61,899 bases of DNA from Reclinomonas americana ATCC 50394 (taxonomy: Eukaryota), in the NCBI GenBank assembly GCA_048213135.1, contig PS015047.1, positions 36,165 to 98,063 on the forward strand, read 5' to 3'. The notes under the pieces were generated by a model. It made no database searches. It worked only from the letters and a program-made list of their open reading frames with translations, and was not told where the DNA came from. Within the stretch, counting starts at the first letter, position 1. Every line of letters begins with the position of its first letter. Positions 1,694 through 35,395 of this stretch are shown in pieces. The position numbers were made by a program, and so were the translations under genes.

Positions 1694-2217
1694 CTCGCCA
1701 TTCGGTGGATGCACCATGCGCAACGGACACTCGGATGGACCAGGGCACTGTGAGCGGGCAAGGTGTGAGCGACAGGTGGTAGGTCCACGAATCACATCCA
1801 GGATGCACGCAACTGGTCGGCAGAAATTCGACAGATCCGCACGTGCAGAGTGACAAGAGTCGCAGAAACTGCATACGAAGTAACGAGTGAGCATCACACC
1901 GTTAGGACTATGATGCACAGACAACAAGACGCAACTGCTGGAGTCGAGACAGGCACGGGGAGGGAAGACAGAAAGTGAGCAATAACACAGACTGAAAGAT
2001 AAAAGCACGCAGATTTCTACTCACTGTCTGCATCGGCGGAAAACAGACGATAGAGGAGAGCAACAGTGAGAAGACAAGCAAAACACGCATGACAGGTAAT
2101 CGATGTTCGCAGCAAACCGTCTGCAAAACAGACACCAGTGAGTAACACAGCAGACACACCATCAGACAGCATGCAAGAGCAACTGACCCCAAAGCAGAAC
2201 CACACGCTGTGGTTGCC

Positions 2218-2255
<38 letters not shown>

Positions 2256-5200
2256 GAGGCGGCAAGTAAGAAACGAGTGCACGCGCGTGAACACACTCAG
2301 GGGCATCGACGCAACGCAATACTGCAGCAGAAACTGGCGACACACAATCGATGACACGAGTGAGTACGACGGATAACGATTGATAGAAATGAGGCTGGCT
2401 GGTCAATAATGATCTCACCGACACTGACAACAAGAAGCGCACAGTGTAAGCACAGTGAATACACACAAGACAAGACGAACTGTAACCAACCTTGAACTGG
2501 AGAAGGCGCGAGTAACGTCACAGAACACACAAATCGCAAGTGAGTGACAATGAATACGAGAGACTGGCAGCGAAACGCGTACCTCCCTGCATCACACACA
2601 ATAAGTCACAAGAAGCAAGAAGAACACCGATAATCAGTGCAGTTACTCACAAGAATGCAGTATCATGCTTGGGGCACGACAAGGCACCGCCAGCCACACA
2701 GCCTCCACACACCAGCTCGCTTGGATCAAAGTTGGCAGGATTCTCCGCGCCGCATATCCTCTCACCGCCAAAGTATGGTCGCTGAACGAGCACAATGAGC
2801 AATTCAGAGCAGCGGTGTCCAATCTCCTTCTCTTCCTCATTTGCTTACATATGACCAACATATAAGGAGACACTGTGCTGCACAGTTCACAAAATAATCT
2901 CCATATACAAGCTTGCACAAAGAGCTCAGAAGAGTGACTGTTCAAATCGCACAGTCTATACTGCACACAAAAGCTGACAAAAGAGCAATGGTTCGGCGTA
3001 TTGCTTCCAGCTCACACACTGTTGCTCGTCCAGTCTCTCATCCACAAAAGAAAGTGCGAGAAACAAGACGTGAATTAATTTCACCAACTCTTTCATCATC
3101 TCTCACCTCCCAGTCTTTCATGTCCGTTCTTTCTCTCTCTCTCTCTTTCGATCACTTGCCTGATCTCAAACACCTGTCTACTTGCACCTTTTCTCTTCTC
3201 ATAAACGACCTATGTGTCTATCACCTCATCCTTCCCCTTTCCCACCCTCCCCTCTTTCTCTTCCCCTTTTACCCTCGCTCACCTGACACCTATGGCACAA
3301 ATAAAAGTTGTACCGATGCAGACCATATCCAAGTGGATCACCAAAGAACTGACTGCCCTCGGTGGTGATCTCGGGGCACGATTCGAGCGCATCGAGTCGC
3401 AGCCGAGCAAGACACTTGTCCTGCGCGTTTTCAGCTGTTCAGCAAACTCGCTGCACAGAACTATTCTGTGCAAGAAGCAGAACGCACCTTGACATGCTCA
3501 AAGAGTTCACGCACGGGAGCCATGAGTGGCTCCAGCGACTTGTGCGACATGGTGGTCTTGCACAGCGGGCACTGCGAGAACGAGAAACTGATGCGGCTCC
3601 CTGCAAAGCCGAAGAGTGAGTACACGATCAAAGAACTCACCGCCACGCGATGCAGGTGACCAACCGCTCCATCTGGCCGTCAACATGCTCTCCACACACT
3701 CGGAGTGGAAAATGTGACCGCACTCCAGTCGAATGCAAGGCGCACAGCTCAGCGGTTCCGAGTAGCAAATCGGGCAGTAGTCCGAATCGTCCTGTACAAA
3801 CACACACACACACACACGCATCAGCACCATCTCTGTGTCTTCTCTCATCACAAACAGTCGCGCACCACCGCCGTCTGCGTGCATCCGTACAAGCACGGCA
3901 AGTGTTCCGTTTCGTTGCAAATGCCATGGCAGACGTGTCCGCAAGGGAGAAGCGCGCGACAGCTCTTCTGACAGCGCGACTCGCACGCAGGCTCCGTGCA
4001 CACATTGGAGAGTGCCGGCGACAATGGCTGTGTGCACAAAGTGATGAGACTGGCGGTAACACGAGAATACTGTGCCAACAAAGAGCACGAACCGCGGTAC
4101 ATCGGTTGGCGTCGGTGAGGGCAGACTCGCAAAAGCGGCACGTCTGCGGTCCGTCACCGCGATCGGCTGCGCGCACCTCAATCACCGCCTTGAAAGTTTG
4201 CGGGTCGACCAACGCCATGAGCTGCATGGCGCGGAGAGTGGTACACCGCAGGCGCACGCCGCCCGCTCGCCACTCGACCGACACGGCCGGCACTACTCGC
4301 CTCACAATTGTGTCCTTGAACTCATCCGATATGTCTGATGAGAGGTGGGAATGGTGAGTATTGTGACCAGACAAAGAGACAGACAGACGAGTGGATCGAC
4401 AATGACGCACTGCGGAAGCACACACAAGCGCAGGCCTTCCAGATGGCCAGCGTGCTCTCAATCACATCAATCGTTCCCGCGACATGCATCAACGACGAAA
4501 TGTGCTCGCCACACGCCTCCGCCAGCGCCTCGTCCCACAACTCGCTTTGCGCGGCGACCGCTCGCAACAGCGCACCGATCTGGGCGAGCGAGTCAGAGAT
4601 CCAAGATAGACACCAAGAGCTCATGAGCAATAATTTGCAAACCTCATCGGCGATTTCGGCAGTGACCACAGTGCGCATGCACAACGCGGCGCAGCTGCGT
4701 AACCTAGTCGACCGCGTGACACCCACTCGCTGATCTCGAATGTCGGTGGTCAGCGCACGGGCAAGCGACAGGAGAAGCAGGTCCACCACTTCGCGTGTGC
4801 CACTGGCGTGCGTTTGTTCCACGCCTAAAGTGGTGAACGGGTGATGAATACGCTTTCAATCATATACGCGAGAGCAAATGGCCTGCGTCTCTCTCAAAGC
4901 CACTCCGATGTTTCCACCCTTCCCCTCTTTTGCACTTGACAAGGAACTCGAGCGCAACTTGCTTCTGTCAGTCACCAACTCTCCCTCTTGCCTCCTTCTC
5001 ACCCTTTCCCTCACCTTACAACACCCAATCAGATGAGCGCGTTTTCTCAAAGCCTCTCCTTCTCTCTCACGCCATTCTCTCTTTCACTCCTTCTCTCCAA
5101 TGCTATCATTTGCACTTTCCAACTATACAAAAGCAACTGGTATTTGTATCTCGCCAAGCCTCCCTTCCCTCTCCCCATCTCTCTTCACTCTCCTACCAAA

Positions 5201-7200
5201 CCAACGATCGCAACAGGCCAGATTCTTTCTCGCACTTACTCTCATCCCCTCTCTTTCTCCCCACCCCCCCCCCCCCTTCCCTCCCTTCCCTTTCCCTATT
5301 CTCGCACTTACCAAGGTCATCGTGCAGACCACATACGGCACTGTCGAGCACAGCCGAGTCCGCATTCAACAACACCTTTTTCAAGATGTGCAGACACGTC
5401 CGCTGCGCTCGCACAGTGGCCGTCGACATCAGGCACTCGAGAAGCACCTGCGCACAGCGGATGAGCAAAGAAAGCAAAGAGATTGAAATTCAACAGAAAC
5501 CGCACCTGCACGGGGAGCGGGCGACACACGAGGTTCAACCCAACGGCGGTGGAGCTGAGCAGCTGCATCACTGAAAGGAGCTGGAACACTTGCGTTTCGT
5601 CCTTGTCGGACAGCGCGGCGACATTTAGTGTTCTGTGCATCACGCTAATGAGAAATCCAAAGAAAAGGGGGGAAGTAAACAATCAGTGCTCGACACACCG
5701 CAAGTGGTCCTCGGGTTCGTCAGCCTCGCGCACAGGTGGAGCATCTCGTTTGAGAATGGCCTTTTCACCGGCACTCTGCATGAGGAATGCGGCTCTCTCG
5801 CGCTGTGATCGCACGAGGCGGGGTGAATCCCTTTGCAACTCTCACGTAATCTCTCACAAACACTCCGCACCTGCACAATCTCCTCGTAGTGCTGCCTGTC
5901 GTTCAGCACATTGTTCGCCGTCTCCGAGAGGTCATCGTGGCACTCACGCAGCGCGACGTACGCCACATCCAGCGGCAAACCGAGCATGCCCTGCAACTCA
6001 CGTGCCAGTGGCAGTCGTGAAGCGGCATCAACGACGCCCACAGGACCTGATGGCAGCACTCGGTGAGCAATATCGTGACGGATCCTTCCATCCCCATCAA
6101 CAACACACCTTCACGATGCACCCACGAGGCAGCCTGTTCCACCCTGCCGCGTACTTTCTGATGCCAATCCTGCTGCGCCGGTGCACGCGACGGACCTTCG
6201 TTCACAGAATCCGCAGCGACGGCTCCCAGAGTGCGGGCCGCATACCACCACAACTTGTACACGTCAAAGACGGGCAGCTCTTGCGGTGCGACCTCGTACT
6301 TTTCCAGTGCACTGCAGAGAAGAAAAGTGAGCAGCACGCGGGAGAGCGCTATTTGGTGAGAAAACTCCTCCACGCAACTACTGCACAATGTGCATGTCGT
6401 AGTGATCGCTGATGAGAGTCTGGATCATCTCGCCGACCTCGGCAAAGCAAATCTAACATCACCCACAAAGTAAAAGTGAGCGATAATCGAAGTACGTCAA
6501 TTGCAGACAGGAGCCTATTTCGCACCGCTTCGTCCTCGGAACGCTGCAATCGTCGGCCGTCGATTTGAGGCGAATCTCCTTTCAGTAACCTCTCCGCCTC
6601 CTCAACCACGCCACACGCGAGGCACAGCGCATGCAGGCAATCGAGAGCGTCGCGATGGAATGTGGAGGCCAGCTGCACGGATTTCATGTGCCGTGATCGA
6701 GCACTTAAGTTGGAGCAATGTGAGGGCACACGCAGAGACGAAAAGACAGGTAGCATCAACGGGGAGCAACACGCACACGTCAACATTCATGAGGCAGTCT
6801 TCGAGGGTGGCAATGGCCACCTCTGGCGGCAGGCCGAGCGCGGACAATTCGCGGACGTGCACCAAGCGGGCGCGAACCTTGCTCTCCTCGTCGCGATAGC
6901 GCAGCATCAGAGTCGACGCGGCGGCATGTGAGCACGACAGGTCGGTGGCGATCGCTTTGATGCGCATCTCCCGGACGTCGTCCTCCGACACGTGTTTCTC
7001 GGTGGTCAGCAATGTGGCCGACTGGGAATGGAGAGGAAGGATTGAGAAGGCGATGTAACGAAATGGGGAATGAACACACAATCAACAGTAAATACAACAA
7101 GCGGAACACAACCACAACCGCAATTAACGCGCAAGAACATGATTAACCAAGAGCAAGAGAGACAAACGCGCGAACAAGCAAAGATAAGCACAACTTGAAA

Positions 7201-7261
<61 letters not shown>

Positions 7262-8603
7262 CCTCCCTTCTCCCCTTCTCCCCCCTCCTACCACTCACCG
7301 CGACAGCCTCGGTGGACCGACTCTTGCGCACAACATTGCGCAACAAGTGGAACACCAGCTCGAAAATGTCGCGCTGCATCTTGCGCATGCGACCGTGCGC
7401 GTGCGACGCACTCTCCGTCAACACATCCACCGACTGCGCACACGGATGAGAACAAGACCGAGACTACACCAATGGTGGGCGAGGGGAGGACTCACATCCG
7501 ACTCGGCGCCGCCGTCGAGTCCAGCCAGCATCGATTCCAAATCGTACAATGACGCGGTGAACGCAGCATCTGTGGTCGCCGGGCCGCTGCCACTTGCTCC
7601 ACTGCCGCCGGCGTTGCCACCGTGTTCGCCCGACAGATAGCGATCGGCGAGTCGCGAAAACGTTTCAAACACATAGTTTTGCGTTCTGTGCGTTGCAAGC
7701 AAGTCACAGCCATGCACTCCACAACCAGCGTGTCGCACACAAGACGAAACTGCACATTCTGCGCCATTTGCGCCTCGGGCAGCTGAATGCGTCTCTCCTG
7801 GTACAGCCGAATTTGGCGCACACGGGGAGAGCTGTGGTTGGGCAGCGAGAAGACGAGGAAGTAGGAGCGTGGAGAACACAGTTGCTCGGCGGTGCCCGGC
7901 AGTCGGAACTTGACCCAACCGGTGAGCGCCGAGTCCGACACCTCGGTCGGCGCGTGCACACGATCGCCGTACGTCAGCGTGACCGTTTGCGGTGTCTGTG
8001 ATCGGCTATGAGAGAGAAAGAGAGGCATGCACAATGTGGAAAAGAATGGATGACGGAACATTCTCTCCATCGCGCAGTCGATCCAACTGCACAGCCAGCT
8101 CGGCCACCGGCACTGTGGTGGCGGCCACCGCCACTTCCACCGGACTCATGCCTGGAATCGTGCCGAATGTGTTGGGGCTCTCGTCCAGCAGCAGCACGCT
8201 CTGTGCGATTGGTGTGTGATCAGTAAAGAGAGAGAGGGAGGAGCAGGAGAAGGACAAGAAAAGGAGCAGGGTGAGAAAGGAACGAGAACATGAAGAGGAA
8301 AACAACGAGACAAAGAGGAAGAGGAGGAGAAGGAGGGCATAGAACAAGCAGAAGGAGAGAATGATATGATACTGATAATGATGAGAACAAGAAGAACAAG
8401 AACAAGATGAAGAAGTAGGGAGGAGGATGAACAGGAATGAGAACACCAACTTCTACAACCAGAGACGACGACGACGACAACAACAACAACAACAAGTAGA
8501 AGAAGAAGGAGGAGGAGAAAAACAAGAATAAGTAGCAGGAGGAGAGGAGAACAACAACAACAGCACTAATAACAATAACAATATCATCATCATCATCAAC
8601 AAA

Positions 8604-8638
<35 letters not shown>

Positions 8639-11600
8639 CGGAGTAGAAGAAGCAGAAAAAGAAGAACGAGAAGTAAATTAAGAAGAATGAGACGAAGAGG
8701 AAAACGCCATATAGACCAACACCGACGCCAAGACTGGCATAACAACGACAGCAAACAAGGAGATGCAGACATCGATCCGCAATCTCTACATTCACGAAGT
8801 GCACGACTAACACATACATCTTCGAGCGGACGCTACAACTGAACACACTGCACCGGATATACCCTCTCTTCAAGAAACAACAGAAAAGCTCAAGCATACG
8901 CAAAAAACACTAAAACGCAATTGCATGCATCTCTCTCACTATCGCTGATGGGAACTAAGGCAGAGGAAACGTACATCCGTTGTCTATTACAGCCGTCCCT
9001 CCCTCTCACCCTATCCGTCTCCCTTCTCTTCACCCTCCCCTTCCCCTTATCTCACCCCTTGTCCCTTATTTCCCCACGTCGCCCTTCCCCTAATCTCCCC
9101 CTTCATCCTTCCCCTTTCCCTCGACTTACCACCACCGACGGCAACGACGGCAACGAGAAAGTACCCTCGACGCCCCGCTCCTGCGAACCCGGCAGCGACT
9201 GCCCGGTGCGAATGGACGGCGCGGAGGCGGGAATCAGAGATCGCCGTCGCGACTCTCCAGCCGACGATGCCGTCGCCGCCATCATGTGATGCATGACGGG
9301 GAAGAGCTGCGCGCGGTTCAGCAGGTCGTAGTCCTGACTGCGGAACGGCATGCGGAGAATCTTCAGGATGAGATGGCTGACGGTCGGCGCCGTGTCCGAA
9401 TCCTTGAGCAGGCGCGTCATGGTGGTCAGCAACGTGAGGAACTCGAGTTGCAACAATGTGGCCACGGTGACGCCGCAACCCTCGCAGTTGCTGGCGAAAT
9501 GCATGGCGGCGTCCTTCTCCTCATCTACGCACAGGAGAGAGAGAGGTAAGTCAAAAGCAGCCTGGCGATCTCCCCTTTTTTTCTCGATTCATGGACCTGC
9601 ACGCTGCTGATTGTCGCGGGCCTCTGCTTGATCGGCAGACAGGTACTTGAGACCGAGTCGCGAGGCCGGGTGGCACATAAAGTGCGCGAGATGCCACAGA
9701 ATGTCGTGCGACACCGAGGTGCGGCCGTATATCCTCAGCTGACGTGACGCGAAACGGAAGCTCTGCGCACGGAGGGAACCGCGTTGTCGCCGCTGCGGCA
9801 TAATGTTGGCCACTTGCGTGACGAGCGTGCCGACGCGCTGCTGCAACTCGCTGCTGACACTTCCACTCTGTGCGACGAGGGATGAGTGCACACAAAGGTG
9901 AAGATCCGCGCTCCCCAATACAAACCTGTGTGTAGCGTGACACGAACGGCGACACATCGTGGCTCGGCAGCTCAATGTGCATAAAGGCGACCAGCGCACG
10001 TGCGAATCGGTCAACTGTGCGCGCCGCCATGGCCACACTCTGCGCGTGAATTTCATCAAGCTGCCGCTGCCGCACCTCCACCGAGCTTGCCGCCGACCCT
10101 GTGGCCGCGGAGCGACCCGCAGCTGCAACAGGAGGTGAGGCACGGACAACAAGCATGGTATCGATGTCGATTACACTCACCAGCACGCGCCTGCTCCTCG
10201 AAGAAGCGCGACGGCGACGCGGAGGCGAACGGATTGAAGGGGGTGATGGGAGTGAGCGGCGTGGTCGGCGCCGACGGTTCCCACGATTCGGTGCGTTGCG
10301 CGTACACGGCAAGCTCCGAGGCCGACTGCGTGCGTGCCAAGAGCACACCGACTGCATGGCTTCGAGTAAGCGCAAGTTGACAAAACTCATTCTCTCCGCC
10401 ACTCGCTCACCCGAGGTCTCCTCGTCGGGGGCACCACGACCACCCGACAGGTCCGCCGACGACTTGAGTTGCGGCGGAAGGAAGTGCCGCGCAAACAGCA
10501 GGACCACCATGCGCTGCATTGCCGAGTCCAACAGATGCGCTTGGTACTCTGCAGGCAGGAAAGGAGATGAGTCCATTGATACGCACAGGGGAAGAACTCA
10601 AGACGCAACGCTTGGCATTCTTGGCCAGTGGCGAATTGTTGGCCGAGGCCACCACCGCGTCACACACTCGCTTGGCATTCAACCAGAATACGCCCAGACG
10701 CACAAGGTCGTGCGTGTGCACCAGCTCTTCGTCGGCTGTCAGGTCGGCGTCATCCTCACGGCGCAGCACATCGAGTGCGCTGCAACAATACAGTGCGGTC
10801 AGCCCATGTCCCTCGCCGAGGCATTACCATAAAACTGCCACCACTCACCGCTGAAACTCGGCCGACGGCGACGAGTGCGCAATGAACTTGAGCATCAACG
10901 CAAATGCCACACGCGTGAGGTGAGCCAGCGCCAGCTCGTTGTCCTTGGTCAGCTTGTGCGCCGGTCGCACACCAGCCGCCGCAGACGCGTCACCGCCAGC
11001 AGAGGCAGCAGCGCGAGCGGCGCTCTCGGCGAACGGATCGTGCGCTCCATCGCTGAAGAACGCCGGCGACACAATGTCGTGCGACGACGAACCGAGACGC
11101 GACAGCGGTTTGACAAGATCGGCCAGCGAGCATTGTGTCTCCAGCAGTTGCACCAAACGACCGGCGGTGCTCTCCGGCGCCACACTCGCCGCGCACAACT
11201 CGTCCAGCAGGCTCGCGGCCGCCGTCGACAATTCGTGATTCTCTTGAGGCAGCTGCAGCAATGCAAAAGTCGGTACTGCAACTAATCAATGGACGTCGTC
11301 GATCGCACAAACCTCGACAAACACAGGCTCGCCCGTCGCCGAGTACCGCGTGTCGGTAACACTTTGGCTGACCAAGTAGCGTGGCTCGAGGCTGTTACAA
11401 GGAAATGGTAAGTCTCATGGAGGTTTGCGAAAGACCTTCAAAGTCGCACGCACCCGCCCTGCAACAAGTCGCAAGTAAACAGTGGCGCATACATGCGCTC
11501 GGCGAGAGCCGACGGGTGTCCGTGCGCCAGCTCGGCACACATGGAGGCGGCCAGTGAGCTGCACGACTGGAAGAGGTGCGCTAGGGGAGAGAGTGTTCTG

Positions 11601-18200: not shown

Positions 18201-20438
18201 GCGTCGTCGTCGTTTCCTGTGGAGAGGAAGGGGGGACAAGGGAGAAGGAAAGGGAAGGAGAGTGAGAAGAGAGGGCGAATAAAGGACAATTGATATCTCG
18301 CTCCCCCACCAAACACACCGAAAAAGTCGAACCCAAGCATGTCCTGCACCATGTCGTCCTCGAAATACCTGCTCGAGTACGCCAGTCGGCTCTCCTCGTT
18401 CACCGGCACCCCATCGTGCGCGTCGATCCGCACCTCCAGCGCAAAACTCAGAGCGCTGACGCCACCGCTGTTGACGACGCGGTACGAGGTGTGCTGCGGC
18501 AGCGGCGATGCCAGTAGTGCAGACGATGTCGGCTGCAAGGTGAGAGGATCCACCTCCATCCAGCGATTCTCCCCGTCGGCGGCCGTCACAAAGAGGCGGC
18601 CGTTGGAGGCCAGCAATTCGGAGGCACTGCGCGGTAAGGAAGAAGGGGGAAATGGGCAAAGAGAAAAGAGAAGAAGTCTGTGTCAAACACGCAACTGTCC
18701 GGCGGCAAGGGTCGCCGACGTCTGCATCGTGCCACTGGTCGCATCCGTCACCGCACTCAGGACGCACACGAAATCACCGTCCTTGACGAAGAGGCGGTCA
18801 CCGAGGCAGGCCACGGAGAGGCGCGAGTCGGGGTGCCAGGCGTGCGGGACGGCAGCGGCGCGTTTGTCGACGGCCACCACCTCGGCGACAATGTGCGTTC
18901 GTGATGGTACACACAGGTGCCAGCTCGGGAGGGTGACGTTGCGGGCGATGCGATGCAGCAGGGCGGCTGGAACTGTGATTTGCACGTCGTCCTTGTAGGT
19001 CTCCAGCGCCACGAGTGTCTTCAGTAGTATGTGGACGTGACGGCGTGAGAAGGCGGAGTACACCTGCAGGGAGCGGAAGAGAAGTGAGGGGGAGAATGAG
19101 GGGAGGGTTGGGTGAGTGAGCGCACCATGGTCGACAGGAGGAGCGGGAGGTCGAGGTCGGCGGGTGGGCGGGCGGCGAGGGAGAAGAGGGCGGTGTCGAT
19201 GGCCACGAGGAGGTCCTGCGAGGAGGCAGAGTGAGTGGACAAGAGGGGAGGGAGAGGAAGGGAGGGGAAGGGAGGGGAGGGGAGATAGAGGAGCGGGTGG
19301 AGACTGAGTGGGGGCGACGGAAGTGGAGGGAGACGGAAGTGGGGGGAGACGGAAGTGGAGGGAGACGGAAGTGGGGGGAGACGGAAGTGGGGGGAGACGG
19401 AAGTGGGGGGAGACGGAAGTGGGGGGAGACGGAAGTGGGGGGAGACGGAAATGGGGGGAGACGGAAATGGAGACTGCACGAACCTCCGGAAACAACTGCA
19501 GCTCATGCGGGAGCGACGACTCCGATCGATCCTGCACCGACACGAACAGCGTGCGGATCGTGGCCAGTGCCTTGTTGATCACCGAGATGGGCGTGTCGGA
19601 GTGATTCAGGGCGAGGAGGTACATGGAGAGGCCGGAGCGTGCTACGGCGGGCAGTTCGACGACGGTTTGTAGGGCGTCGCGGGAGAGGGAGGTGGTTTCC
19701 TGGTGGAAGGGGGGGAGGGAGAGAGAGGGCGAAAGGGGAGAAGAGTGAGGGAGATGAGGGAGAAACGTGAGGCAAGGATGCATGCGAGCAGAGAGACGAA
19801 GCAGCTGTGCGGCGGGTGGGTAAGTGATTTGGAGTGAGGGAATGAATGAGAGAGTGAGACAAAAAAGAGGGGAAGGAAGAGAAGGATGAGAGAGAAGCGA
19901 GGGTGAGACTGAGGTAGTGTTGCTGACATGCTGCGCAGGGAACAGCATCAGTGGACATGAATAGTGAAAGAGTTCGGTGCGGAGAAAGAGAGTGAGCGAG
20001 AGAAGCACAGAGAGCGAGTGCATTCAGGAAGAGGAGAAAGTGAGTGAGGTGGGATGAACAGATTGCAGTGAGTGAGAGAAGTGGCGCGGAGTGAGTGCGG
20101 GAGCTGCGGATGAGCAGAGTGAACAAGTGAAACAGAAGAGTGAGATGAAGCGAGTGGTGAGTGGGCAGGTGAATGAGAGATAGACCTGGAGTGTGGGAGC
20201 GAGAAAGAGAAAGGGTACGCGAGTGAGTGAGAGAGAGAGAGGGAGTGAGTGAGAGAGAGAGAGAGGAGGGAGGGAGGGAGGAGAGGAGGAGGAGGAGGAG
20301 GAGGAGGAGGGAGGAGGAGGNNNNNNNNNNNNNNNNNNNNAAACACACCTCTCTCTCTCTCTGTGGGTGACTGTGAGAGCCCGACTTCGATGAGCGTGAA
20401 TTACGCAGGTTGTCTTTGCCCTCTCTCTCCTCCCTCAC

Positions 20439-21587: not shown

Positions 21588-24500
21588 GTTGCTGTTGCTG
21601 CCATCTGCTACGCACGCGGTGTCATTATCTTGTGCCTGTGACGCATGCAGGTGGATCGTGAGCACCGTGAGATCAATTTGTGCATCGCGGGAACGCGATC
21701 CGATGTGGTGATGGTACCAACACCCTCGGCTCCAAAATTTACAGACTCGTGGACCGACGGAGAATGGATGGATCTGAACCATGAGCGTCGGGAGATGTTG
21801 GCTCCGAAGTCGACTGACTTGTGGACCGATGCGATGCTGGCCCTCGGATACGCGTACACCGCCGCTGTACCGTGGCAGTTTGAGGCCGCCAAGGAGGCGC
21901 TGAAGTATGCGCTTTGCGAGGTTGCACCGGCGTACCAAGCCAGTCACGGGCCAGACGCAGGATTCAACCCGTATCGCGTCAGTATTCACGGACACAGTCT
22001 CGGCTCAGCCATTGTGCGTTTTAGTTGTCTCTATTTCTTGTCGGGTCACGCTCATCTCAATCGTGTTCAGTGTGCCTGGTTGAAGCACGGCGATTTTGCA
22101 AAAAATGCCAAGCTTCCAGTGAATGCCTACTTATTTGCCACCATTCCAGTGCCAACGGGATGGGTGGACAATGCCGCTGACAAGGTCTGTTCCTCGTTGT
22201 CGGCTTCCAAGAATGCAAATGAGAAACTCAACAACGCCCAGAATCAGAAATTGAAAGCTGCTCAGCCGTCGAGTGCTGCCGGCATGACGGTGTTCCACAG
22301 CGGAGGTGCTGTTCATGCATACTCGAATTCAGGCGATATTGTGGTCCGAGGGGCGCAGTTGGTCGGTTCGCTTCACCGTGGCTTTCAGTTGCCCGACACC
22401 ATTGAACACGACTCTCCACCAAGCCAGCATGCTATCGTCCATTTCTACGATACTGCACGAGCGGGTACTTCGAATTGATTTAACTTCGCCGTCTGCATAC
22501 GCTCAATTCTAACTATCTGAGTGTGTTCAGCTCTTGGTGAGAATGATGCGTTGTTCATTAAGGACATAATTCGCATACTGCGTGGTACGCTGCAGCCAAG
22601 TGACGGTGAGTGTGTCGTCGCACGTGCGCGACCTGATGGTGTATTTCTTACACTGCTCGAGTCTGCAGATCAAGCTGTCTCTGTTCACAATGTGGAGAAG
22701 GCTCTCTCTGAAGTGTTTGAAAAAATCAACGCACGGCATGTGGATGTGCAACAAAGTGCGCGCTTGCAAGCAGCACTCAATGACTGCTTTCAGGGATTGT
22801 GGAATGGTAAGTGTGTGGTCGTAACACGCTGTTGCAGAACTGAAACTTATTTTTCCAACCATAGAGTTGCGAAAGCTCGTGACAGGAGAAGAAGAGCGGG
22901 GGTCCCTGGATGCGCTGGAATTCCTTGGACCGTTGGTTGACTTGGTGGTGGAAGGTACAATTACGCTCTCTGTGATGTGTGCAAGCTATTTCATTCGATC
23001 GATCAGATTCTTGGTTCTTTGTTCTAGGTAATGACGTTTCGCCGAATCAAACATTCCCTGTCGCGACACGGGCGATTATGCAACACTTAGAAGCAGTTGA
23101 AAGTGCGTTTAAGTTTGTTGCAGCACTTACATTGACTCCTTTTGTGCTGAAGTCATCAGCAGGAGGTAGTATTCCTCGATCTGTGCTACTTGTGTGCATT
23201 GGAGTTCAACAATTTTGTGGTGATCGGATGCCTGTTGCGTATATCACTCTCTCGTAGGTCGGCCATGCATTTTCTCACTGTTCATGTACATGCCACCATA
23301 TACATCTACATCTACAGAGGAGCACAGCAGCAGCTGAAAAGGCATTTGGCATTCTGCAATTAATGGTCAACTGGGAGCAGATGCCAACCGCAGGTGCACA
23401 CTGCTGTGGTGGTGATCACGACGGTGGGCCGTGCGCATCATCATTAGTACCTGAAGTCTGTCAATCTGCGACTGAAATGTCTTAACGTGCTGTAGGGACT
23501 GCTGGCGGCAAATTGTTGATCGCAAGGGAGAAAACTGCGAAATTGCTACGCTATCTAGGAAATTATGCCAATGCGGAAGTGATGCAGCGACACGTGTTGG
23601 CCGAGAATGAGCAACAACTTGGGGTCGACCATCCAGATACCATCACAAGTCGCAGCGGATTGGCCTCTACACTCCAATCGGCTGGCAACTTTTCCCAAGC
23701 CGAGGACATTGGACGACGAGTGGTGATCGACCGCGAGCGGGTTCTTGGAGTCGATCATCCTCATACTATTGGCAGTCGCCACAGCTTGGCGGTGACACTC
23801 CAGTCGCTTGGCAAGTACGAGGAGGCGGAGAAGATTGGACGGCGTGTGGTGGCCGATTATGAGCGGATTCTCGGAGTCGACCATCCAGACACCATTGCCA
23901 GTCGCAATGACCTGGCTTCGTCGCTCCAGTCACTTGGCAAGCATGCCGAGGCTGAGGCAATCGGACGATGTGCTGTGGCCGACTGTGAGCGGATTCTTGG
24001 AGTAGACCATCCAGACACAGTTGCCGTGCGCGATGATTTTGCTTCGGTGCTTCTTTCAGTTGGCAAGTACGCCGAGGCTGAGGAGCTTCAGCGGCGTGTG
24101 GTGGCCGATCGTGAGGTAATTCTTGGAGTTGACCATCCAGATACCATCGCCAGTTTTCGTGTCCTGGCGTCGACACTCCAGTCACTTGGCAAGTATGTTG
24201 AGGCTGAGGACATAGGACGACGTGCTGTGTACAACTGCGAGCGAATTCTGGGAGTCAACCATCCACACACCATCAACGGCCGCCTCGCATTGGCATTGAT
24301 ATTCCAGTCGCTCGGCAAATATGTCGAAGCCGAGGAGTGTGGACGGCGTGTAGTGACCGACTGTGAGCGATGCCTTGGTGTCGACCATCCGCGCACGATC
24401 AATTGTCGCCAACACTTGGCGTCAACACTTCGATCGCGTGGCAAGTATGCCGAAGCCGAGCTGATTGAGCGGCGTGTCATGGCCGACTGTGAGAGGATTC

Positions 24501-26497
24501 TCGGAATTCACCATCCTGACACCATCACCGGACGACTTAGTTTGGCATCTACACTCCAGTCGCTTGGCAAGTTTGCGGAGGCCGAGAAGATCCAGCGGCG
24601 TGCGGTGACCGACCGCGAGCGGATTCTTGGAGTGGATCATCCCAGCACCATCGTCAGTCGGCACAACTTGGCGTCCACACTCTGCTCACTTGGAAAGTAT
24701 GCCGAGGCCGAGGAGATGCAGCGGCGTGTGGTGGCTGACCGTGAGCGGATTCTTGGAGTCGACCATCCGCACACCATCACCAGTCGCCACAGCCTTGTAT
24801 CGACACTTCGATCACTTGGCAAATTTGCAGAGGCTGAAGAAACGGGACGACGTGCTGTGTTCGACAGTGAGCGGATTCTTGGAGTTGACCATCCGGACAC
24901 CGTCGCAAGTCGTCAACTCTTGGCGTCAATCCTCCAACTGCGCGGCAGGTACACTGAGGCCGAGGTGGTACAGCGGCGTGTGGTGGCCGACTTTGAGAGG
25001 ATTCTCGGAGTCTTCCATCCCGACACCGTCTCAAGTCGTCGACACTTGGCCGAGGCACTCAAGTTACTTGGCAAGTATACTGAGACCGAGGCGATTCTGC
25101 GGCATACGGTGGCTGATTTCCAGCGGATTTTTGAAGTCGATCATCCGCACATCATAACCAGTCAACAAGACTTGGCTTCGATTCTTGAGGCGCATGGCAA
25201 GTATGCCGAGGCCGAGGTGATTCGGCGACGTGTGGTAGCCGACCGCGAGCGGATTCTCGGAGTCGACCATCCAGACACAGTCGCCAGTCGCGAAAACTTG
25301 GCTGCAACACTGTATTTCCTCGGCAAATATGCTGTTGCCGAGAAGATTCAGCGGCGTGTGGTGGCCGACCGGGAGCGGCTTCTTGGAGTCGACCATCCGG
25401 ACGCCATCTCCAGTCGTTGCGACCTTGCAATGATGCTCAATTCGCTAGGCAAGTTTGCTGAGGCCGAGGAGATACAGCAGCGTGTGGTGGCCGAATTTGA
25501 GCGAATAGTTGGAGCCGACCATCCAAACACCATCACCGGACGCCACTGCTTAGCATCGATATTTAGGTCTCGTAGCAAGTACGCGGAGGCCAAAGAGATT
25601 GATCGGCGTGTGGTGGTGGACCGAGAGCGGATTCTTGGAGTCGACCATCCCGACACCATCAATAGTCGCCTCGCCTTGGCGTCGACACTCTGGTCGCTTG
25701 GCAAGCATGCCGAGGCCGAGGAGATTCAGCGACGAGCAGTGGCCGATTATGAGCGGATATTTGGAGTGGACCATCTGCGCACTGTCGACTGTCGCCACGG
25801 CTTGGCATTGACTCTCCGGTCTCTTGGCAAGCATGCCGAGGCCGAGGAGATTGATCGGCGTGTGGTGGTGGACCGAGAGCGGATTCTTGGAGTCGACCAT
25901 CCCGACACCATCGACAGTCGCCTCGCCTTGGCGTTGACACTCTTGTCGATTGGGAAGCATGCCGAGGCCGAGGAGATTCAGCGACGAGCATTGGCCGATT
26001 ATGAGCGGATATTTGGAGTGGACCATCTGCGCACTGCCGACTGTCGCCACGGCTTGGCGTTGACTCTCCGGTCTCTTGGCAAGCATGCCGTGGCCGAGAA
26101 GATTCAGCGACGTGTAGTGGCCGACAATGAGCGGATTCTTGGAGTCGGCCACCAACGTACTATCACCAGTCGCAACAACTTGGCAGCTATATTGCATTCA
26201 TTTGGCAAATATGCCGAAGCTGAGGAGATTCAGCGACGTGTGGTAGTCGACTATGAGCACGTTATTGGAGGCGACCATCCAGACACTCATACGAGTCGCC
26301 GTTTATTGGTGGCAATACTGCGGTCTCTTCGCAAGTACGCTGAAGCTTACGAGATTGAGCAGCGTACACGTGGCCATGAAGGTTGGATTCTTCAACTTGA
26401 CTATCCTGCCACCAACAATATCACTGGCACCAGTCGCCACAGCGTACCGTCGACACTGCAGCCGGGTGATATTCCTATATTCCGCCTCGGGTTGTAA
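20884..26497 (+). CDS. Class-3 lipase (alpha/beta hydrolase) domain + helical linker + 22 x 42-aa TPR repeats (kinesin-light-chain/fungal-NLR type)
   Basis: Exon 1 is 20884-20940 (MLQRLLSWGGRVLLGVGGL), exon 2 is 21059-21502, exon 3 is 21651-22013 (INLCIAGT..., VSIHGHSLGSAI with GxSxG at 21990-22004) and exon 4 is 22071-~22464 (YLFATIP, NSGDIVV, QHAIVHF). Short linker exons span 22531-~23394, followed by a 3.0-kb terminal exon 23496-26497 of LGVDHPDT..LA..L..LGKY.EAE repeats. The lipase-to-TPR linkage is inferred; one linker splice (~23100-23320) could not be resolved. Confidence 0.75.
23618..26389 (+). repeat. 126-bp coding tandem repeat array (22 TPR units), including a recent 252-bp duplication (25595-25846 / 25847-26098)
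   Basis: The LGVDHPxT period of 42 aa was counted 22 times. Units 17-18 and 19-20 are nearly identical at the DNA level. Confidence 0.93.
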
Positions 26498-32134: not shown

Positions 32135-33594
32135 TTATTCCGGCAGCGCCTGCTGCAGAAGCGACCACTGCGACAAGCAAGAAGATATCAGTAAAGTGGA
32201 CGTGACTGAATTGCAAGACACACAGAGACGCACCAATGCATCGCCAAATTGCTTCTCGCCCCACGCAAGACTGCGACTGCGTGCCTCGCGCGCAACTCTT
32301 TGTCGCTCCTCGGCGTCCTCCAGTGCACGCTGTGTGGCGGCCACGGCATCGTCGACCGAACGCATGTCGGCATGAAACGCAGCGCCGGCGCCCAGCAAAT
32401 CCACGGCTCCAATCTGCCCGCCGCTGTCGCAAATGGTGGGCACGCCAAACGCCGCGCTCTCCACAATCGTCAGGCCCCACGGCTCGTACGTGGTGGGGTG
32501 GAAGTTGAGGCACGTCTGGCGATAGAGGGTGGCCAGCGCATCGGGCGTCACGTGCCCGAGTATCGTGCACTCGTCGTCGCCGGGAAAGGCCGCACGCAGG
32601 CACTCGATCACTCGTCGCCCGTAGTCGGCGTCGGAGACGGAGCCGACAAGGACCGGTCGAATGCCCCGTTGGCGCAAGAACGGCGCCATGGCGGCACACA
32701 CTTCGGCAAACACCAGCGTGTTCTTCTCCGGACTCAGCCGACAGCAACACAACAAGAACTGTTGCGGCTCCTCCTGCGGCCGCTCCTCCTGCGGCTTCAC
32801 TGCCAGCTCCTGAATGTGCGACGCCAGCGGCGGTCCCAACACATGCACCGGCACCGCACACACTCTGTCGCCCTCCTCGTCTCCAGCTTTCCCGCGACTC
32901 GCCAAGTGCGCCTCCAGTCCGCGCCGCACCGCTCGCGCATCCACACTCGACAGGCACACCACGCAGTGCGACAACTCGCACGCCTCCCACAGCCGCTCCA
33001 CGTAAAACGCCGCATCGTCGGGCGAGTTGGAGGGGTTGGCCGAGTACTCGCGAAACGGGAAGAACACGAAACGCACCGTCGACGGCAGCGACGAGCGGAG
33101 CGCCGAGAAGGCCGGTGCCGATGTCCAGTCCACGCCAATGACGAGGGAGGGCGAAAAGTCGGCGAGGCGTTGGGAGTGGGTGGTGGGGAGGGACTGGGAA
33201 AGGGAAAGGCATTAGGAAGGGAGAATGCAGAGGGATAAGCATTGCTCAACATCATCTTTCTCTCTTTGTATCCACCACCTCCGGCAAGCCATCATTAACT
33301 TCCACGCAGACTCCCTATCCAACCGCCTCCACACCGACACCGCCACACTCCACACTCTCACCACCACCTCTCCACGCTCATCCAGCACCTCCATTCGCCC
33401 ATCACCACCACCACANNNNNNNNNNNNNNNNNNNNACCACCACAGTCATCCTTGTCTCCACTTCTCGCACAGACCACCGTCACCTCATTGCCCGCACGCG
33501 TCACCAGTGAATGCACCATCGATCGCCCATACGTTCCATTGCCGGAAAACAGCGGCGCGATAAACTCCAACGTGAGAAACACAATGCGCGTCAT
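32135..33594 (-). CDS. GT-B fold glycosyltransferase, family 4 (Glycos_transf_1-like)
   Basis: N-terminal MTRIVFLTLEFIAPLFSGNGTYGRSMVHSL; CRLSPEKN; NFHPTTYEPWGLTIVESAAFGVPTI (ExxG-x-E motif). Multi-exon. Confidence 0.85.
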
Positions 33595-33663: not shown

Positions 33664-35395
33664 ATGGGTGTGCGGTGGCAGCAGTTCGCTGCGCTCATGC
33701 GCAAGAACTTTACGTTGCAGGTGCGGGCATGTGTGTCTTCAGAAACTCACTGTTGCAAAGTATTTGGTCACACTCTTTGTTGCTCACACACTTTGCACAC
33801 TCCTATACACGCAAGTGCACACTCTTTCACACAATCGCTCACTGTTGCACACTTTACGCACACTTACACACGCTTTGTGCACACAAACACTCACAGTTGC
33901 ACACTTTGCACTCTTCCACACACTATAACACACAAGTGCGCACTCTGTCACACACTTACACACACAAGCACTCATTGTTGCACTCTTACACACACTTACA
34001 CACACTTTGCACACGCTTTCACACATAAACACTCATTGTCACACACTTTTCGCACACTTTTGCACACTTTGCACTCTTTTACACACAAGCGCACACTCTT
34101 TCACACACTATTGCACATAAACACTCACTGTCACACACTTACACACACCTACACACACTTTGCACACACTTCTGCACACAAGTAGCACACTTTGCACACT
34201 CCACTCACTAATGCACACTCTTTTCACACTCTTTTCCCTCACTCTCTCTTCTTGTGTCACAGCTCCGACAAAAGTGGCTTGTCGGCCTCCAACTTGTGTT
34301 TCCCGTGCTTCTGGTGCTCTTTGTCGGGCTTTTACAGGTGATTATTGATCGGAGGAGCCCTGATGATGTTTTTATGTTTTCTCCACTGATGAACTCCGCT
34401 TGTTATTGTGTGCTATGCAGCTTTTCGTCAACAACTTTACGTTTGAGCTCGGCTCCAATCAGTTCAACAATGCGACCATTCCGCTTGCTGGGCCGCTCTT
34501 CACGGTGCCCTTCCACACGAACCAGAGGTGATGTTGTTCATTGTGTCTATCTCTTCTCTCATCTCACTCTCTCCTCTTTCTCGATCTCTCTATTGGTTTC
34601 CCTTTCTCTGCTCTCAGTCTCCAGATCTCTCTTTCTCTCTCAGTGGCACTCTCTCCGCTGTGTCTCTCTCAGTCTCCCTCTCTCATTGCTTTCTCTTTCT
34701 CTCCTTTCAGACTCTTTCTCTCTGTCTTCTGTTTGTCTTCTATATAAGTCTTTCTCAGTGCCTCTCAGTCTCTCTCCGTCGTTTCGCTTTCATTCTCCTA
34801 GTCCCTCTCTGTCTCTCAGTCTCTCTCTCAGGCTCTTTTCTTCTCCCAGTCTCTCTCGGACTCTTTCTCATTTCTCTTTCTGCCGATCTTTCTCAGCCTT
34901 CTCCTTATCTGCCTTCCTGCGTTGCTACGTCGTTGACTGAATCGCCTTCCGCTCTGTCGCAGCCTGGCCTTCAACAAGGTCTGGTTCACCACCGATGCGG
35001 CCTCCAAGGACCAAGCTGGCCGTCTCACGGCCACTGGCGATCGTGACGGTTTGTGATTACCTTTGTGACTCTCTCGCTCTTTCCGCGGTCTTCTTTCTTG
35101 GCTCTCTCGCTCATTCCCTCGCTCTCTCTCTCTCTCTCTCTCTGCTCTTGTACACTTCTCTTCCCACTCTCTTGCCGTTACTCTCTCGCTCTCTGCCTTC
35201 TCTACCCATCTTTCTCTGCCCTTCTCCCGCTCCAACTGTTCGCACTGGCTTCTGCCTGTCTTGTGCTCTTTCCACACACTCGCACACTTCTCATNNNNNN
35301 NNNNNNNNNNNNNNGGGAGAAGAAGGGAGGGGATTACGTGTGTGGGAGTGAAGATGGGAGAAAAGAAGGCACGCCGGAAGAGAGTGGAGAGAGGA

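Follow-up and report, generated by a model that had tools for sequence, protein, structure and literature searches.

A run of eight predicted micro-exons of 2–19 nt in the tandem-cysteine core of a RING-Cys-relay-type E3 ligase gene of Reclinomonas americana

Lineage-specific gain of introns is familiar from introner elements and intron-gain bursts, and the stepwise removal of adjoining intronic units from recursive splicing and from fungal stwintrons. At the other end of the scale are very small exons. Exons down to 1 nt have been documented, including cases in Arabidopsis and in Fusarium CYP621A (PMC4674806, PMC12940212), and plants have ultra-short micro-exons of 1–15 nt, with adjacent micro-exon clusters numbering at most two per gene (Peptidase M1; PMC8831610). 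In the schistosome micro-exon genes (MEGs), the coding region consists mostly of long runs of very small symmetrical exons (PMC4350168). These descriptions of very small exons are taken from excerpts of the papers concerned, and apply to that extent. Here we analyse a stretch of ~62 kb from contig PS015047.1 of Reclinomonas americana ATCC 50394 (the window; a draft assembly, with 13 N runs), in which the minus strand at 2650–1869 appears to carry eight consecutive micro-exons. They lie in a gene for a putative RING-Cys-relay (RCR) type E3 ligase, and together they would encode the segment that holds the second catalytic cysteine of the enzyme.

The PHR proteins (MYCBP2/Highwire/RPM-1) are giant multidomain proteins with RCC1-like, PHR and APC10-type domains. 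In MYCBP2 (PAM/Highwire/RPM-1; PDB 5O6C, 6T7F) a RING finger is followed by a tandem-cysteine domain, and the window gene has the same arrangement. Its tandem-cysteine domain is, however, dispersed. Between positions 2651 and 1868 of the minus strand there are eight pieces of 4, 6, 5, 18, 19, 3, 3 and 2 nt, separated by nine spacers of 64, 86, 67, 85, 109, 67, 90, 87 and 67 nt. The positions and letters that an initial annotation had given for the eight pieces were all recovered when rechecked on the sequence, and remeasuring bore out its totals of 60 coding nt over 782 bp with nine introns of 64–109 nt. All nine spacers start with GT and end with AG, and their removal restores both the reading frame and the conserved sequence. 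The 131-nt exon at 2781–2651 stops two bases into a codon and the exon from 1868 contributes the last base of another, and when the pieces are joined a single open frame runs from 2781 to 1694. The predicted product of the eight micro-exons is the most conserved 20 residues of the tandem-cysteine segment, second catalytic cysteine included.

The identity of the gene can be read from the larger exons. On its own, the 131-nt exon gives a match to the solved RING-Cys-relay module of human MYCBP2 (residues 135–179 of chains 5o6c_A and 6t7f_A, E 5e-6). Upstream of the tandem-cysteine domain lies a RING finger (zf-RING_2, E 2.5e-6, in the minus-strand frame 3510–4181), which aligns with the RING of eight homologues, and one homologue, P0024, matches 5o6c_A over the entire module (E 4.4e-96). 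The joined 28-residue segment was compared with the animal-type homologue P0041, whose letters in this segment are, compared by eye, those of human MYCBP2 chain 5o6c_A residues 179–206. The alignment of the micro-exon product with these chain residues is gapless, and 22 of the 28 residues are identical; the ‘residue for residue’ match of the initial annotation thus holds as an absence of gaps and not as complete identity.

Both catalytic cysteines have equivalents in the joined product. The upstream one is a cysteine in the 131-nt exon that aligns with chain residue 143, and the downstream one is the codon at 2196–2194, which aligns with chain residue 195 and is present only in the inferred spliced product. 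These two chain residues are 52 apart, the same spacing as that of C4520 and C4572. We take chain cysteine 143 to be human C4520, and C4572 reportedly acts as the downstream relay cysteine. A C4520S mutant of MYCBP2 is described as catalytically inactive in an excerpt of PMC12664034. From the RING exon to 1694 the joined product has no stops or frameshifts in ~750 nt, and it keeps 27 of 27 Cys/His columns (columns conserved in at least seven of eight homologues). The zf-RING_2 and MYCBP2 matches and the intact Cys/His columns uphold the earlier description of the gene as a RING and tandem-cysteine ligase related to MYCBP2, and the codon at 2196–2194, lying in the 19-nt piece of a chain that our aligner recovers (see below), agrees with the claim that the chain encodes the segment with the second catalytic cysteine. 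Judged by its sequence, the gene would encode an RCR type E3 ligase module, for which a thioester relay and Thr/Ser esterification are predicted. We do not claim orthology to MYCBP2. Pfam found no domain, and hence no other PHR-type domain, in the nine long minus-strand upstream frames scanned (3640–10597; a full gene model was not built). The nearest relatives, of 543–1107 residues, likewise set the window gene apart from MYCBP2.

The chain was recovered by an aligner that had no knowledge of it. Our spliced aligner, which allows any GT..AG intron of 40–400 nt and exons of at least 1 nt and was blind to the coordinates of the initial annotation, returned the identical chain in 16 of 16 runs (eight homologue targets, each with the intron penalty set to 0 and to 4). 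A dinucleotide-preserving shuffle null at zero intron penalty, the most permissive setting, was compared with the real score of 190, and none of 400 shuffles of 2650–1869 reached that score (null mean 90, maximum 130). Because the null attains two thirds of the real score, micro-exon models evidently over-fit easily, and for this reason the weakest parts of the chain were shuffled separately. With only 2187–1869 shuffled, which holds the 3-3-2 run, the real score was reached in 0 of 300 cases (maximum 180), and with only 2650–2334 shuffled, which holds the 4-6-5 run, again in 0 of 300 (maximum 176). A long-range run over ~2.6 kb (4300–1694, penalty 8 per intron, three homologues) gave the whole chain again with P0024, whose score of 608 was the highest. 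Since the exons on either side show homology to one and the same MYCBP2 domain and to its relatives, the missing 20 residues must come from between them. A window search found no intact contiguous copy of the motif elsewhere in the window; such a copy had been named as another possible source of the transcript.

The spacers also have the character of introns. The ordinary introns of the same gene measure 64, 67 and 501 nt and lie between exons of ~127–136, 113, 138 and 131 nt; the assertion that the other exons of the gene are mostly 50–500 nt thus holds for these four nearest upstream exons, the sole ones checked. The spacers fall into the same 64–67 nt class or into a class of 85–90 nt, and the 109-nt spacer holds a 33-nt microsatellite. 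A branch-like motif is present within 50 nt of the acceptor in eight of the nine spacers, with CTCAC itself in six of nine and in one of three control introns. Internal AG dinucleotides are depleted, with 8 observed in the nine spacers against 16.5 expected from composition (a ratio of 0.49, P = 0.007). None of the eight lies beyond nucleotide 32 of its spacer, which leaves none between the branch region and the acceptor. This depletion, which played no part in finding the chain, is to be expected under selection on 3′ splice-site choice, and it suggests that such selection continues.

When the window was scanned for chains of intron-like units without recourse to homology, the target region came up as two four-intron chains, with partly different bounds, and little else was flagged: four introns at 34338–34710 on the plus strand and three at 20008–19700 on the minus strand. 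The former was rejected as a chain, being an ordinary exon and an 83-nt intron followed by CT-rich low-complexity sequence. In the latter, 21 and 7 nt separate the three intron-like units. Within the ligase gene, the 501-nt intron (2782–3282, minus strand) starts in purine-rich low-complexity sequence, unlike the T-/G-rich short introns nearby. Dinucleotide microsatellites occur at 2221–2253, within intron 5, and at 3796–3817, just upstream of the RING exon; the length of intron 5 is therefore likely to vary between individuals.

There is probably a tenth intron. The initial annotation correctly placed the start of the last flanking exon at 1868, but the 175-nt exon 1868–1694 does not seem to be unbroken. 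It carries 17–23 residues more than the homologues, depending on the homologue, and the excess coincides with a 66-nt stretch, 1813–1748. This stretch starts with GT and ends with AG, has no internal AG and has a CTCAC-type motif near its 3′ end, and it shares its first seven bases with introns 5 and 9. With P0001, the closest relative (77% identity in the 131-nt exon), the alignment score is 67 when the stretch is removed and 44 when it is kept. As the stretch is in frame and free of stops, its retention would also keep the frame, inserting 22 residues.

Relatives were collected by a HMMER search with the 43 residues of the 131-nt exon (E 0.001 or better), which gave 51 proteins (P0001–P0051); a word-index protein search with the same exon (77–2000 aa), unlike HMMER, found nothing. 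The closest are RING-RCR proteins of 543–1107 residues from protists and environmental contigs. Pfam, run on six longer relatives (650–1107 residues), gave the RING-type finger as the sole domain type in five of them (one with a B-box in addition) and no domain in the sixth. Ten relatives were looked up: eight trace to environmental contigs and two to EukProt transcriptome sets, and of these two sets one is that of a named amoebozoan. Modules of a RING and a tandem-cysteine domain are widespread outside animals, occurring in environmental contigs and in the EukProt amoebozoan transcriptome.

A chain of introns like that of the window was seen in none of the relatives analysed. The tandem-cysteine segment follows uninterrupted, directly after the part that matches the exon, in 21 of the 51 relatives as read from the listing. 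For the comparison of intron positions that the initial annotation had called for, 51 homologous metagenome-contig loci (L001–L051) were aligned with the same spliced aligner, and six were set aside: L005 because a repeat truncated it, L029, L040, L044 and L050 because they gave no full alignment, and L033 because its path was doubtful. Of the remaining 45 loci, 31 have no intron in the ~150-nt segment, 11 have one and three have two, and none of the nine intron positions of the window was found in any of them. Intron positions in the segment vary between lineages, and in animal-type loci the segment is a single exon or has one intron. Read-through translations suggest an intron at or adjoining the intron 1 site in P0003, P0010 and P0039, and one a few bases from intron 5 in a group of G+C-rich relatives. 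The segment is uninterrupted in the closest relative, P0001, which points to the cluster as a gain in the lineage of the window.

We therefore consider it very likely that this is a real, functional RCR-type E3 gene, and that a dense set of short U2-type GT–AG introns has entered its tandem-cysteine core in this lineage alone, leaving constitutive micro-exons between them. Splicing itself, the constitutive use of the pieces and the successive removal of the spacers are what we infer from genomic DNA. Several points weigh against this explanation. Random sequence at zero penalty can score as high as 130 of the 190, and the three smallest pieces have the weakest margin, with a null maximum of 180 against 190. 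Two of the three homologues in the long-range run took partly different paths: P0037 exchanged the 4- and 6-nt pieces for a 10-nt exon, 2586–2577, followed by a 153-nt intron, and P0015 departed from the chain past the 19-nt piece, on a path with stop codons. Intron 5 has none of the listed branch motifs within 50 nt of its acceptor, and that of intron 1 is weak. The remainder of the gene 3′ of 1694 falls in the assembly gap 729–1656, so that intactness is seen for the part from the RING exon to 1694. Among the protein-search matches to the 131-nt exon queries there was no transcript-derived protein of this organism. It is possible that a second, uninterrupted copy lies outside the window, the search for copies having covered these 62 kb only.

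If the chain is used as we propose, nine introns within 60 coding nt, and a probable tenth 55 nt further on, would leave the eight constitutive micro-exons. Each intron of 64–109 nt would be recognised as a unit (intron definition), its signals being a donor of its own, a branch site resembling CTCAC and, ahead of the acceptor, a stretch free of AG. Neighbouring introns would be removed one after another, in an order that need not be fixed, and only in the fully spliced message would the codon for the second catalytic cysteine share a reading frame with the remainder of the domain. Successive removal is suggested by the spacing, because an acceptor and the next donor that lie 2–6 nt apart would not be occupied together. 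The initial annotation had gone further and spoken of ‘strict, ordered’ splicing; the anatomy does not require this, as successive removal follows from it but a fixed order does not.

The same anatomy could in principle serve, as the initial annotation suggested, as a regulated gate or checkpoint, with the chain real, its removal slow or ordered, and partial splicing controlling the amount of active ligase. The DNA does offer some material for this. The 10-nt alternative with its 153-nt intron, replacing the 4- and 6-nt pieces, has its donor 6 nt downstream of micro-exon 1 and is in frame; it skips the 6-nt piece. Skipping of the 3-, 6- or 18-nt pieces leaves the frame intact, the arithmetic of the initial annotation being correct in that loss of a 2-, 4-, 5- or 19-nt piece shifts the frame and loss of the others does not, and candidate intron 10, in frame and stop-free, could be retained. 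In plants, according to an excerpt of PMC8831610, the introns on either side of micro-exons tend to be detained, their splicing following polyadenylation, which makes slow removal plausible, though nothing more. However, the residues that these alternatives change or delete are conserved in the aligned homologues (the 10-nt form replaces two residues conserved in eight of eight), so that the resulting isoforms would probably be inactive rather than regulatory. Moreover, the anatomy is accounted for just as well by introns that were gained and are carried as a neutral burden. A gate of this kind is, in our judgement, unlikely.

Slightly less likely again is that the locus is a relic, either a formerly spliced copy that is now non-functional or poorly spliced (an unprocessed pseudogene), or one whose activity is supplied by a paralogue elsewhere. 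The loss of the 3′ end of the gene to the assembly gap, and the nine further upstream frames without a recognisable domain, would be compatible with decay of this sort. Against this, a decaying copy would hardly be expected to keep ~750 nt of joined coding sequence free of stops and frameshifts together with all 27 Cys/His columns, all ten donor and acceptor dinucleotides are intact, and the depletion of AG suggests that selection on 3′ splice-site choice is continuing. Finally, that the spacers are not spliceosomal introns at all, but insertions at the DNA level (eliminated sequences of the ciliate type, or repeats) or an artefact of a draft assembly with N runs and a microsatellite in intron 5, is very improbable, given that nine of nine termini are GT..AG with no TA or pointer repeats and boundary repeats of 0–2 nt, that branch-like motifs and an AG-free 3′ region are present, that the size class equals that of the ordinary introns of the gene, and that the spacers, the microsatellite aside, are not copies of each other, of the coding sequence or of anything else in the window. 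Ciliate-type DNA elimination in particular was rejected because the termini are GT..AG and the composition is rich in G+C.

We also looked for traces of how the putative introns arose. Pairwise comparison of the nine gave short motif matches only, with no likeness beyond the branch motif. Set against the local coding sequence in a tandem-duplication test, none scored above shuffles (p 0.18–0.99), and no copies of them were found elsewhere in the 62-kb window except for the microsatellite. Given this lack of mutual, coding or window likeness, and boundary repeats of 0–2 nt, origins as introner copies, by exon tandem duplication or by recent repair-type insertion are not supported. Introner-type repeated introns were rejected specifically because the window holds no near-identical copies and the boundaries show no target-site-like repeats. 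For gains old enough to have diverged, these origins would be indistinguishable. Nine or ten gains in ~115 coding nt of the most constrained part of the protein would be hard to fit to any single known gain mechanism.

The chain can now be set beside the described small exons, as far as the excerpts of those reports go. Like the micro-exons of plants and fungi, its pieces are below exon-definition size, have a conserved coding function and belong to a kind routinely missed by annotation. The plant examples amount to at most two adjacent clusters, whereas the window chain would have eight in a row, six of them of 2–6 nt, with introns of 64–109 nt. The MEGs, with symmetrical exons whose skipping keeps the frame and with variable secreted proteins as products, differ from the window chain, in which four of eight pieces (4, 5, 19 and 2 nt) are asymmetric and the product is an invariant catalytic core. 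Classification as a schistosome-type micro-exon gene was rejected on the asymmetry of these four pieces. Recursive splice sites have zero length, whereas here real coding letters stand between the intronic units. Our literature search found no report of a comparable run, that is, of asymmetric 2–19 nt exons in an invariant catalytic core, which is not proof that there is none in print.

The initial annotation warned that gene predictors are likely to miss the chain, and tblastn supports this, since 11 homologues gave no match below position 2650. An annotation pipeline would yield a ligase that lacks the second catalytic cysteine, or would break the gene up or omit it. Alignment guided by protein and permitting exons of 1 nt recovers the chain at once. 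The features of the gene, in the order of its coding strand, are collected in Table 1.

Table 1. Features of the putative RCR-type E3 ligase gene in the window, from the RING-finger exon to the edge of the traced part
Feature	Position	Strand	Evidence or remark
RING-finger exon, ~127 nt	3665..3791 (5′ limit 3791–3800 not fixed)	-	Pfam zf-RING_2 E 2.5e-6, spliced alignments, tblastn
Intron, 64 nt	3664-3601	-	spliced alignment
Exon, 113 nt	3488..3600	-	spliced alignment, P0024 path
Intron, 67 nt	3487-3421	-	precedes 138-nt exon
Exon, 138 nt	3283..3420	-	spliced alignment, tblastn
Long intron, 501 nt	3282-2782	-	after 138-nt exon
Exon, 131 nt, first catalytic cysteine equivalent	2651..2781	-	MYCBP2 5o6c_A/6t7f_A match E 5e-6; 51 relatives
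Putative intron 1, 64 nt, phase 2	2587..2650	-	GT..AG, without internal AG
Putative micro-exon 1, 4 nt GGAG	2583..2586	-	aligner; possible alternative 10-nt form 2586-2577
Putative intron 2, 86 nt, phase 0	2497..2582	-	GT..AG
Putative micro-exon 2, 6 nt TTCAAG	2491..2496	-	aligner
Putative intron 3, 67 nt, phase 0	2424..2490	-	GT..AG
Putative micro-exon 3, 5 nt TGTCG	2419..2423	-	aligner
Putative intron 4, 85 nt, phase 2	2334..2418	-	GT..AG; CTCAC 27 nt from 3′ end
Putative micro-exon 4, 18 nt	2316..2333	-	aligner
Putative intron 5, 109 nt, phase 2	2207..2315	-	GT..AG; contains 33-nt dinucleotide microsatellite 2221-2253
Putative micro-exon 5, 19 nt	2188..2206	-	cysteine codon 2196-2194, aligned with MYCBP2 chain residue 195
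Putative intron 6, 67 nt, phase 0	2121..2187	-	GT..AG; CTCAC 18 nt from 3′ end
Putative micro-exon 6, 3 nt ACG	2118..2120	-	aligner, part shuffle
Putative intron 7, 90 nt, phase 0	2028..2117	-	GT..AG, without internal AG
Putative micro-exon 7, 3 nt ACA	2025..2027	-	aligner, part shuffle
Putative intron 8, 87 nt, phase 0	1938..2024	-	GT..AG
Putative micro-exon 8, 2 nt CA	1936..1937	-	aligner, part shuffle
Putative intron 9, 67 nt, phase 2	1869..1935	-	GT..AG; CTCAC 19 nt from 3′ end
Exon 9a, 55 nt, first part of 175-nt exon 1868-1694	1814..1868	-	alignment
Candidate intron 10, 66 nt, phase 0, in frame, stop-free	1748..1813	-	GT..AG and P0001 alignment
Exon 9b, 54 nt, ends at GTACGT donor	1694..1747	-	sequence

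The rest of the window was surveyed more briefly. Pfam on ten further frames found only TPR and glycosyltransferase domains, and Rfam returned no match. The plus-strand frame 23486–26497 is uninterrupted over 1003 residues and consists of ~22 TPR_10/TPR_12 repeats with highly similar units, so the genome also has long intron-free coding stretches. On the minus strand, 32135–33211 is an intron-free frame of 358 residues for a family-4 glycosyltransferase (Glycos_transf_1, E 5e-16). It had no match in the word-index homologue search, and among the ten nearest clusters listed for it in the protein Atlas, nine are bacterial and one is without a taxon record.

Should the chain be spliced as proposed, perhaps no other conserved enzyme core seen so far has spliceosomal introns packed so densely or ultra-short constitutive exons in so long a series. 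The chain would stem from a local and lineage-specific burst of gain, and its introns, their splice-site footprints overlapping, could be removed only by successive, recursive-like splicing; we advance this more tentatively than the reading of the gene itself. Exons of 2–6 nt leave no room for simultaneous recognition of the preceding acceptor and the following donor. Ten introns in ~115 coding nt, with a 3-3-2-nt run among the pieces, would, if true, offer a natural setting in which to study intron definition and to ask how small an exon can be, and eight such exons one after another would reveal the reach of stepwise splicing by intron definition, in a compact natural substrate for the study of splicing order.

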